This document shows positions 15,805 to 19,714 of a stretch of 43,543 nt of DNA, piece by piece. Source of the stretch: a virus. Taxonomy: Duplodnaviria > Heunggongvirae > Uroviricota > Caudoviricetes. Below the pieces are notes generated by a model. That model was not told the DNA's origin. It did no database searches and worked only from the letters and a program-made list of their open reading frames with translations. The stretch spans positions 1-43,543 of the IMG/VR virus record IMGVR_UViG_2541047719_000002. One strand, 5' to 3'. The translations under genes were made by a program, and so were the position numbers. The stretch's first letter is position 1. Each line of letters begins with the position of its first letter.

Positions 15805-15977
15805 GACGACAGCGACGAAGTTTCACCGACATCATCTGCGAAAACTGCAAATACCTTCCAACGAAACGCTCCAGAAATAAACGCAAGCCAATCCCAAAAG
15901 AATCTGACGTAAAAACCTTCAACTACACGGCTCACCTGTGGGATATCCGGTGGCTAAGACATCGTGCGAGGAAATGA
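15801..15977 (+). CDS. ninE: NinE-like protein
   Basis: 58-aa ORF ([58 protein letters not shown]) matching recalled lambda NinE; GGAGG RBS; ATGA overlaps. Confidence 0.6.
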
Positions 15978-16924
15978 CGATGACTGCGTATTACAACGAA
16001 ATAGATCCGTATGCAGCGCAATGGCTGCGTAACTTAATTGACGCTGGAGAAATTGCCCCCGGTTATGTAGATGAAAGGAGTATTGAAGATGTCACACCAG
16101 GTGATTTGCGAGGATTTACCCAGCACCACTTTTTTGCAGGAATCGGAGTTTGGAGCTATGCACTTAGAAAAGCAGGATGGCCAGACAACAAGAGTATCTG
16201 GACAGGAAGTTGCCCATGCCAACCTTTCAGCTCGGCAGGCAAAGGAAAAGGGGTTGATGACGAGCGGCACTTATGGCCGGCATTCTTCTGGCTTATTGAA
16301 AAATGCAATCCTGGCATCGTTATTGGCGAACAGGTTGCAAGCGCAGACGGCCTCGCTTGGCTCGACCTTGTACAAACTGACTTGGAAGGTGCGAACTACA
16401 CCTCTGCAGGTACCGATATTTGCGCTGCGGGCTTCGGTTCTCCGCACATCAGGCAGCGATTGTATTGGGTGGCCTACTCCAACGACAAATATCAACTTTC
16501 AGCCAGAGACGCGCAGGGGAATTCAGAACCTATCTGGATGCGTGAGACTAGCGGGATGGCAAACTCCTTTAGCGAACGATGCAACAGGTTCAACGCATTG
16601 CTACAGCGGAAAAGACAAGAGCGGAACCCCAAGAATCTGCTTGAAACTTCCCGGGACGGTGAAGCTATGTACCCATTACCGGTTAACGGCTTCTGGAGAG
16701 ATGCAGACTGGCTTTACTGTAGAGATGAAAAATATCGTCCAGTTAGACCCGGCTCATTCCCGATGGTTAATGGCATTGCCAAAAGCTTGGGACGAGGCAA
16801 GTCCACACTGGGAAGAATGGCAAAGCGCAATCAAGATCAGCGAATTATTGGATATGGAAACGCAATCAATGCAGAAGTAGCAACGGCATTCGTGAAAGTT
16901 TGTATGGAGGTTGTTAATGCTTAG
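15974..16924 (+). CDS. Orphan DNA (cytosine-5) methyltransferase
   Basis: C5-MTase motifs: motif [10 protein letters not shown], motif [17 protein letters not shown]-like IGEQV; no adjacent restriction endonuclease gene. Confidence 0.8.
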
Positions 16925-17102
16925 CCCATCCCAATCCATTCAATACCAGAAAGAAAGCGTCGAGCGAGCTTTAACGTGCGCTAACTGCGGTAAGAAGCTG
17001 CGTGTGCTGGAAGTTCACGTGTGTGAGCGTTGTATATATGAATGCTTAAATATGGTGGAACATAATGAGAAATATAAGCAACATAGACGAATTAAGAAAT
17101 AA
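16917..17102 (+). pseudogene. ninF: ninF 5' fragment (NinF residues 1-39 fused to a 22-codon out-of-context tail), interrupted by HNH gene insertion
   Basis: [39 protein letters not shown] matches recalled lambda NinF up to codon 39 (17033); sequence diverges from 17034. Confidence 0.6.
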
Positions 17103-17571
17103 ATTATCATATGATGATGTTTTAGGTGTACTTAGATGGAAAGTGTCTCCTTCTAATAATGTTAAGGTTGGCAGTGTTGCTGGTTACATTAGGAGTGATG
17201 GTTATAGGATGTTAACTATCGATGGTGTAATTACTTATGCTCACCACGTTATATGGATGATAAATAATGGTGAGATTCCATTAGGGTATAAAATTGATCA
17301 TATAAATGGAGTAAGGTCAGATAATAGGCTATCTAATCTTCGATTGGTTACACACCAACAGAATGCACAGAACCAAAAGAGAAAAATAACCAATTCGTCA
17401 GGAGTGACTGGAGTATATTTCAATAAAGAGAGATGTAAGTGGATTGCGAATATATGCGTAGATGGGCGCACCAAATATCTTGGAATATTTGCTAGCATCA
17501 TTGACGCTATTGCAGAAAGGAAGAGGGCAGAAAAAGAACTGGGTTTTCATGAAAACCATGGTAGACCATAA
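17065..17571 (+). CDS. HNH homing endonuclease with AP2-like domain (copy 3), inserted within ninF
   Basis: 168-aa ORF, ATG with RBS; HNH_3 motif (HHVIWMINNGEIPLGYKIDHINGVRSDNRLSNLR) and AP2-like C-terminus (GVTGVYF...LGIF...LGFHENHGRP); AT-rich. Confidence 0.85.
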   Translation: MRNISNIDELRNKLSYDDVLGVLRWKVSPSNNVKVGSVAGYIRSDGYRMLTIDGVITYAHHVIWMINNGEIPLGYKIDHINGVRSDNRLSNLRLVTHQQNAQNQKRKITNSSGVTGVYFNKERCKWIANICVDGRTKYLGIFASIIDAIAERKRAEKELGFHENHGRP

Positions 17572-19558: not shown

Positions 19559-19633
19559 GGGTCAGTCGTATAAAGGTAATCACGGAAGGCTGTTAACCTT
19601 CTTATCGTGGTTCGAGTCCACGCTGTCCCGCCA
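19559..19633 (+). tRNA. tRNA-Asn-like (anticodon GUU), atypical, possibly degenerate
   Basis: Anticodon stem GAAGG/CCTTC with loop CTGTTAA; T-arm CGTGG-TTCGAGT-CCACG; discriminator G and encoded CCA; acceptor stem 6/7 with a U-U mismatch; D-arm pairs poorly. Confidence 0.45.
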
Positions 19634-19638
19634 AACAT

Positions 19639-19714
19639 GCTGGTTTAGCTCCAATGGTAGAGCAGTCGCCTTGTAAGCGAATGGGTAGCGGTTCAAGTCC
19701 GTTAACCAGCACCA
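19639..19714 (+). tRNA. tRNA-Thr (anticodon UGU)
   Basis: 76-nt cloverleaf folded by hand: perfect 7-bp acceptor stem GCTGGTT/AACCAGC, D-arm GCTC-CAATGGTA-GAGC, anticodon loop CTTGTAA, T-arm AGCGG-TTCAAGT-CCGTT, encoded CCA. Confidence 0.75.

Follow-up and report, generated by a model that had tools for sequence, protein, structure and literature searches.

The window analyzed here is a 43,543-nucleotide (nt) stretch of viral DNA (Duplodnaviria; Heunggongvirae; Uroviricota; Caudoviricetes), taken at full length from IMG/VR record IMGVR_UViG_2541047719_000002. Positions 15974..16924 of its plus strand, on which all window features described below also lie, form an open reading frame (ORF) of 316 amino acids (aa) that we designate α, the predicted catalytic and S-adenosylmethionine (SAM)-binding subunit of a C5-cytosine methyltransferase. 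Its ATG at 15974 overlaps the stop codon of ninE (ATGA), and its TAG at 16922-16924 overlaps the start of ninF; in a sister E. coli prophage, PGAP places the start of the gene at the ATG equivalent to 15980. Inside the α ORF, an 810-nt stretch of the +1 frame (16071-16880) is open, from TAG 16068-16070 to TAG 16878-16880. This stretch could encode a second polypeptide, β, of 263 aa in its long form (16089..16880, from ATG 16089), with a conserved core of 207 aa (16257-16880).

Judged by profile and structure comparisons, α is a real homologue of the C5-cytosine methyltransferases. It matched Pfam PF00145 at 52.6 bits (E 6.3e-14; cut-off 22), over profile positions 64-196 only, and PHROG 363, 'DNA methyltransferase', at E 9e-92. 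The score against the NCBIfam dcm model TIGR00675 was 42.2 bits, below the cut-off of 100.65 and with an alignment beginning at profile position 25; it is low because the α frame has no target-recognition domain (TRD) and no motif IX. The best solved relative was M.HhaI (sequence E about 1e-6, Foldseek E 6e-9).

The extreme N-terminus of α holds a motif II-like segment (strand 2/helix B; residues 5-21, 15986..16036), at which nearly all family members start, and this is followed by a motif III-like DERSIEDV. Motif I (FxGxG) with helix A comes only then, at residues 51-68 (16124..16177) between motifs III and IV, where FFAGIGV occupies about 16130-16150; the window has FAGIGV at this site and relatives have FAGIGG. 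Motif IV, SCPCQPFS (residues 79-93, 16208..16252), contains PCQ at 16214-16222 and the catalytic Cys82 at 16217-16219. Motif VI (16325..16336) reads GEQV, with Glu119, whose counterpart in C5 enzymes protonates N3, and a Gln in place of the usual Asn, and motif VIII (16442..16477) includes PHIRQR at 16442-16459 with R160 and R162. Motif X (16850..16900) carries GYGNAI at 16850-16867, in DNA that is single-coded again, and its Asn296 is the equivalent of HhaI Asn304. EQV, FFAGIG, PCQPFS and YGNAI were invariant across 37 diverse family members, Cys82 and Asn296 included. Because EQV is invariant across the family, the change from Asn to Gln in the ENV motif is, on this alignment, not a mark of decay.

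A preliminary description had placed a C5-cytosine methyltransferase with clear motifs at 15974-16924 in the nin region. Its coordinates were exact, and the PF00145 match and the position between ninE and ninF bear out the assignment. The motifs were clear in part: PCQ, the Glu of GEQV, PHIRQR and GYGNAI are as expected, while ENV is replaced by EQV, motif I is out of order, and a TRD and motif IX are missing. That description had also pointed to inactivating substitutions in the catalytic Cys or ENV motif as something to look for on alignment, and we found the catalytic residues intact.

The position of motif I was probed by rearranging α and rescoring it. Deletion of residues 46-69 raised the PF00145/TIGR00675 scores from 52.6/42.2 to 61.8/52.9 bits, and moving the same residues to the N-terminus raised them to 74.8/65.1 bits, with the alignment now starting at profile position 4-5. 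Controls in which the segment was shuffled or reversed reached 63-65/54-55 bits only, such that de-permuted α gained 22 bits over the native protein and 7-13 bits over controls. The same operation in five distant members (K1H, RcSalem, XAP3, P0339 and P0320) gave scores that exceeded those of the reversed control by 6.7 to 12.6 bits. Because de-permutation raises profile scores over controls both in α and in these five members, the SAM-binding motif I unit is assigned a place between motifs III and IV family-wide, as a predicted internal permutation. Nearly all of the best 150 α matches aligned their own residue 1 to query residue 3. The idea that α is a truncated or decayed gene lacking motif I is ruled out, as the N-terminus is family-wide and motif I is present, though displaced.

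Between motifs VIII and X, the α frame contains neither a TRD nor motif IX. What it does contain is a low-complexity linker (residues 169-237, 16478..16684), a frame that is open but not selected and that appears to be carried as a passenger. AlphaFold gave predicted local distance difference test (pLDDT) values of 80-90 for α residues 1-170 and below 50 for residues 173-296. In long homologues the linker is seen to be built of G[LM]A[DN][AT] repeats of the GMAN/LADA type. These repeats are the out-of-frame shadow of a WPTP repeat encoded by β: CTG GCC GAC GCC, for example, read one base later, becomes TGG CCG ACG CC.

To ask how widely the second frame is kept open, 80 homologous loci were fetched and 79 genes were recovered, with 47-100 % aa identity. 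In all 79, the open +1 frame takes up 82-98 % of the gene, and the +2 frame contains 9-26 stops; the +1 frame is likewise open in two very distant homologues, from Rhodobacter phage RcSalem and coliphage K1H. For 59 non-redundant genes below 85 % identity, synonymous codons were resampled with the α protein held fixed, and the +1 stops observed were compared with those expected. At the 5′ end the two agree, with 33 observed and 36 expected at α residues 3-20, and 91 against 81 at residues 21-39 (124 against 117 for residues 3-39 pooled). Stops then become scarce, with 6 observed and 41 expected at residues 40-83, and vanish altogether at residues 84-169 (0 against 105), 170-237 (0 against 84) and 238-285 (0 against 31), or 0 against about 220 for residues 84-285. 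Beyond this point they return, with 71 observed and 49 expected at residues 286-314. In the converse test, with β held fixed, stops in the α frame of the variable region numbered 0 against 200 expected.

Codon usage changes at the same boundaries. Synonymous-codon entropy at conserved α residues is 0.74-0.85 up to residue 83 and falls abruptly to 0.2 at P84; it stays at 0.2-0.5 through residue 165, is 0.11 at residues 256-270, and is 0.75-0.84 from about residue 286. In the variable region, read in the β frame, the third codon position is the most variable (1.52-1.68), followed by the first (1.34-1.45) and the second (1.28-1.36). The entropy pattern, the coding signature of β and the zero stops in either frame lead to the conclusion that both frames are maintained: across the family, both are kept open and are under purifying selection, and the selected frame is β in the middle and α at both ends. 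In the RcSalem homologue (L002 3983-5143), which comes from a phage of 63 % GC, a frame plot of GC content at third codon positions gave about 0.65, against 0.8-0.9 in the neighboring terS. This weak enrichment fits third positions that are constrained by an overlapping frame.

Start signals for β were found at two places. The long form begins at ATG 16089, 8 nt beyond a perfect Shine-Dalgarno (SD) sequence, AAAGGAG, at 16074-16080, and a database protein of 263 aa (P0390) is 100 % identical to it. The internal start (16242..16259) consists of the SD-like AAGGAAAAGGGG followed in the +1 frame by TTG 16254 and ATG 16257, so that the 3′ part of the motif IV segment doubles as an internal ribosome-binding site for β. 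A conserved GGCAAAGGAG (GCA GGC AAA GGA G..), followed by a +1-frame TTG and/or ATG, is present in 72/77 unique genes, and the onset of synonymous constraint on α (residues 84-99) coincides with this conserved SD and internal start. Further upstream, the first +1 ATG is made by conserved GAT-G codons at α residues 33, 39 or 43 in 75/77 genes. Stop avoidance from residue 40, together with this conserved first ATG, points to an additional, upstream β start; the extension that it would add is open, but not conserved as protein.

Alignment of homologues divides β into three parts. A conserved N-terminal region (16257..16469; MTSGT...SLLANRLQ...LRAS..RTS) may be the part that docks on α, by analogy to M.EcoHK31I, in which the β N-terminus is needed for association (PMC2836561). 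Putative target-recognition modules follow at 16470..16670, and the window has two of them, WPTPTTN... at 16470-16556 and WQTPLAND...KLPGTVKLC at 16557-16670. Each module is 35-45 aa long with WPTP or WQTP at its start, and modules vary in number and are shuffled among homologues. The third part is a conserved C-terminus (RLT..GEM.TG...) with a 19-aa segment (16740..16796) that has the pattern of C5 motif IX, as judged by an hhalign match to the methylase of Mycobacterium phage WillSterrel, and that coincides with the strongest synonymous constraint on α (0.11). For HhaI we take the corresponding motif IX to be RKLHPRECARVMGYPDSY.

The WillSterrel enzyme is informative in that it has, in one frame, motifs I-VIII, three LLPTP..D modules, ARLNPAFPEWMMGWPTGW and IGNGV. 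Its motif IX is LNPAFPEWMMGWPTGW, its PTP..D repeats are at the same place as the β modules, and the β profile matched exactly its motif IX, specifically and with an hhalign E of 1.9e-4. This protein, gp71, is one of the single-chain actinophage methylases whose TRDs are built of PTP repeats, and it shares with the window pair a PCQPFS.AG..G..DERH.WP core, GAPH.R.R, (L/W)PTP..D modules, an LNPA...W(L/M)MG.P.GW motif IX and a GN motif X; unlike the pair, it has all of these in one frame, the canonical motif order, and ENV. The β frame also matched PHROGs 1008 and 31772, both labelled DNA methyltransferase, and searches of the +1 product against Pfam and PADLOC gave no match. Together these comparisons indicate that β carries the TRD-like modules and motif IX that α lacks.

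Because the β frame is conserved and selected, its start signals are conserved, and motif IX and the modules fall in the +1 frame, we consider it probable that this locus encodes a nested two-polypeptide orphan α/β C5-cytosine methyltransferase of the EcoHK31I type within a prophage nin operon. The preliminary description had treated the ORF as one ordinary gene. This has to be revised, as the evidence indicates that 15974-16924 is the α subunit only and that the nested +1 ORF at 16089/16257-16880 holds the recognition modules and motif IX. In the mechanism we propose, frame 0 would give α, in which motifs in the order II-III-I-IV-V-VI-VIII are followed by a disordered linker, read through to reach motif X, and the +1 frame would give β, translated on the same mRNA from its own start or starts (16089 and/or 16254/16257) to the stop at 16880. 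α would bind SAM through motifs I-III and X and supply the catalytic residues Cys82, Glu119, Arg160 and Arg162. The conserved N-terminal part of β, together with motif IX, would dock on α, and β would rebuild a small DNA-recognition domain as in M.HhaI, with its WPTP modules facing the major groove. Cys82 of α would then attack a flipped-out cytosine at C6, C5 would receive the methyl group from SAM, and the heterodimer would thereby methylate a cytosine within its target sequence. SAM rather than carboxy-SAM is the expected cofactor because Asn296 is kept. We infer that β is translated, that it associates with α, and that both are needed.

In lambdoid phages, nin genes lie on the delayed-early rightward transcript of lytic growth. 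A promoter and terminator scan found none on the plus strand inside the α/β pair, and because the pair has no promoter of its own and shares stop/start overlaps with ninE and ninF, we would expect α and β to be made from that transcript during lytic growth. Replicating phage DNA would become methylated, most plausibly blunting host restriction, and it seems reasonable to suppose a protective role of this kind.

The comparison with M.EcoHK31I is one of described architecture, and on these grounds the window pair appears to be of the EcoHK31I type. Lee et al. are said to have given lengths of 309 aa for its α and 176 aa for its β in 1995, similar to the 316 and 207-263 aa of the window pair. In M.EcoHK31I, the β coding sequence is contained entirely in the α gene, in another frame; motifs I-VIII and X are found on α and motif IX on β, and the enzyme needs both polypeptides. 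Initiation is separate, and internal Met codons can start β (PMC2836561; PMC3404938). The window shares each of these traits of layout: a β wholly inside the α gene in another frame (16071/16089-16880 within 15974-16924), motifs I-VIII and X assigned to α and motif IX to β, and putative alternative internal β starts. There are also differences. M.EcoHK31I, from E. coli HK31, recognizes YGGCCR as part of a restriction-modification pair, whereas the window pair is an orphan and lies within the nin operon of a prophage. Its TRD is predicted in the literature to be on α, whereas the window variable region is selected in β and the α version is a passenger linker. The displaced motif I of the window α may be a third difference.

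Other relatives differ in other ways. M.AquI (CYCGRG), the other natural two-subunit C5 enzyme, is also made as two polypeptides that must assemble, split inside the variable region into a large subunit bearing motifs I-VIII and a small one bearing IX-X (PMC3404938); in the window, unlike M.AquI, motif X is on α and β is nested in another frame. With M.HhaI and Dcm (PF00145), α shares the PCQ nucleophile, the motif VI Glu, the motif VIII RxR and the motif X GN. Those enzymes, unlike the window pair, are monomeric, with motif order I-II-III-IV, ENV rather than EQV, and the TRD and motif IX in the same chain. CmoX (PDB 8yf3) resembles the window enzyme in its C5-methyltransferase fold, in being phage-borne, and in ParB-like neighbors in some family contexts. 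Its defining residue is Arg350, at the site where HhaI has Asn304 (PMC12783734), and it has SPPC and a linked CmoA, whereas the window has Asn296 and SCPC, with no CmoA nearby.

The family is large. An exhaustive search with α returned 16,125 clusters at E<1e-3, of which 3,235 passed E<1e-30, and a database search with β matched 3,904 predicted proteins, almost all of them unnamed and without a Pfam domain. Xanthomonas phage XAP3 likewise has the nested layout, with a different middle, and in the record of phage K1H both frames are annotated as DNA methyltransferase. Several variants were noted among homologues. An intein-like insertion splits motif IV of P0284 (766 aa) and P0369 (842 aa) at the catalytic cysteine (SCP|C FPAG...VVHN|CQPFS), the most conserved residue of α. 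An extra domain of ~150-200 aa is present in P0244, P0247, P0258, P0291, P0307, P0281 and P0293, either between an RPV.P block and motif X or just after EQV. In three rare database ORFs among the best 120 (P0501, P0504 and P0505), the N-terminal core of α is fused in frame to β modules: P0504 consists of α 1-162 plus β, and P0501 of the α N-terminal part plus β, followed by a return to motif X. These fusions could be natural single-chain derivatives or assembly frameshifts.

Several observations count against a nested pair. The internal start codon is missing from 5/77 genes, K1H included. The loci were fetched as best tblastn matches, which introduces some selection bias toward intact α ORFs. 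In the window alone, an open +1 frame is no more than modestly improbable, as the expectation is about 4.4 +1 stops per gene, which by a Poisson estimate gives a P of about 0.01; the strength of the case thus rests on the whole family, not on a single window. A whole-gene synonymous shuffle of total +1 stops was not significant on its own; since the stops are concentrated at the ends of the gene, this test carries no information, and segment-wise tests were used instead. The similarity between β and WillSterrel motif IX is short, at 28 columns with an hhalign probability of 48 %. A β profile searched against PDB sequences found nothing, and an AlphaFold2 model of β alone was poor (pLDDT 47).

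Among other explanations, the one that survives best, although we regard it as unlikely, is programmed ribosomal frameshifting, by which the α core would shift to the +1 frame for a TRD and motif IX, or shift twice and return for motif X. The DNA-level fusions P0504 and P0501 make such a topology conceivable, but only 3 of the best 120 ORFs are fused in this way, and assembly errors could account for them. Frameshifting needs neither a +1 frame that is open from α residue 40 nor a frame 0 that is open through the linker, and it would have no use for the SD and start codon conserved at residues 92-96. Inspection by eye near residues 160-175, which was not a systematic search, showed no slippery site, and M.EcoHK31I uses separate initiation (PMC2836561). 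A shade less likely again is the proposal that the +1 ORF encodes a real protein unrelated to the methyltransferase, such as an overprinted accessory or anti-defence protein, with α alone being active or inactive. The lack of a Pfam or PADLOC match for β and of a predicted fold leaves room for it, but β carries motif IX and modules of the PTP type, which in canonical relatives lie between motifs VIII and X. Precisely those elements are missing from α, and M.EcoHK31I sets a precedent for such a division.

We consider it quite improbable that the locus encodes an ordinary single-polypeptide orphan C5-methyltransferase, as the preliminary description and present database annotation have it, with the 316-aa protein forming a complete enzyme and the +1 ORF being a meaningless shadow. 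The Pfam and PHROG matches fall on the annotated frame, PGAP annotates the α frame only, and the whole-gene shuffle would also agree with it. None of this explains 0 stops where 220 are expected over residues 84-285, synonymous sites of α that are frozen exactly across the overlap, or an internal SD and start that are conserved. An enzyme of this kind would also have a low-complexity middle, and no TRD or motif IX in its own frame, while motif IX and the PTP repeats, which are in frame in the single-chain relative, fall in the +1 frame here. The least credible alternative is transfer of a group other than methyl, for example carboxymethyl as in phage CmoX, opening a DNA hypermodification pathway; CmoX (8yf3) was among the top Foldseek matches, and E. 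coli makes carboxy-SAM. A CmoX-like carboxymethyltransferase is ruled out by the invariant Asn of motif X YGNAI, where CmoX has Arg350 (PMC12783734), and by the lack of a CmoA or CmoY-like gene nearby.

The genetic context agrees with an orphan enzyme. The gene order is NinB, NinE, α, NinF, an HNH_3 ORF, YbcO, RusA, NinH and Q, and the host element is a lambdoid or P22-like prophage. No restriction endonuclease gene was found among the neighbors from NinB to Q, so that the earlier designation of the gene as an orphan, without a cognate endonuclease, holds. PADLOC returned only generic methyltransferase core matches at the locus, with no membership in a defence system. The free-standing HNH_3 ORF (17065-17571), between ninF and the next nin gene, matched PADLOC homing-endonuclease models and is missing from the sister prophage (L001), which has a 100 %-identical methyltransferase gene; because of this absence, we conclude that it is an independent insertion. 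Both observations rule it out as a cognate nuclease. Genes for tRNA Asn-GTT and Thr-TGT lie at 19559-19714, just 3′ of the Q antiterminator gene.

Of 5,426 complete E. coli genomes, 11 carry the α gene in identical or nearly identical form; in each of them it lies between ninE and ninF and is annotated as 'DNA cytosine methyltransferase'. In the E. coli K56-43-un prophage (L001 6007-6990), the α coding sequence is annotated as 984 nt and extends 46 nt into ninF, so that the α stop codon, or the sequence close to it, must have changed there. Among sequenced phages, the closest ones (HK629, HK630 and others) contain ninB, ninE and ninF, and the methyltransferase gene is absent from them. A plasmid search for family members beside restriction genes returned phage-plasmids and prophages only, and a Klebsiella aerogenes match proved to lie in a phage region broken into fragments. 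Several phages of Klebsiella and Escherichia (matches H33 and H43) have the homologous methyltransferase gene beside a ParB-like gene, a neighbor that has also been reported for CmoX-type enzymes (PMC12783734).

These results have practical consequences. Expression of a codon-optimized or recoded α ORF would be likely to yield no methylation and a false 'dead gene' call, because recoding would destroy the nested β. PGAP and most phage records list one of the two proteins, and thousands of β ORFs stand as unnamed hypotheticals. Assignment of methylomes to genes in E. coli and Salmonella prophages, ST131 lysogens included, may need both proteins.

The locus also offers a clean example of long dual coding on one strand, with strong statistical support and found throughout the family. 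The logic of nesting may be that co-inheritance and co-expression are guaranteed, and that modules can shuffle while the other frame merely stays open. The predicted internal permutation of motif I would add to the known structural plasticity of C5-methyltransferases. The nested architecture itself has a characterized precedent in M.EcoHK31I; its family-wide scale, a module-bearing β and the permutation of motif I may be undescribed. We found no description of the nested arrangement in this phage family or of the motif I permutation, in a literature coverage that is incomplete and gives weak evidence of novelty. We propose, as a tentative generalization that could well prove too broad, that the >3,000 clusters (50 % identity, E<1e-30) are without exception obligate nested pairs, dual-coded over 600-1,000 nt, in which β carries swappable WPTP modules, α threads through as a spacer to motif X, and motif I is permuted. 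If true, few same-strand overlapping gene pairs of bacteria or phages would match these in length and spread, and β would be a gene that databases largely miss.

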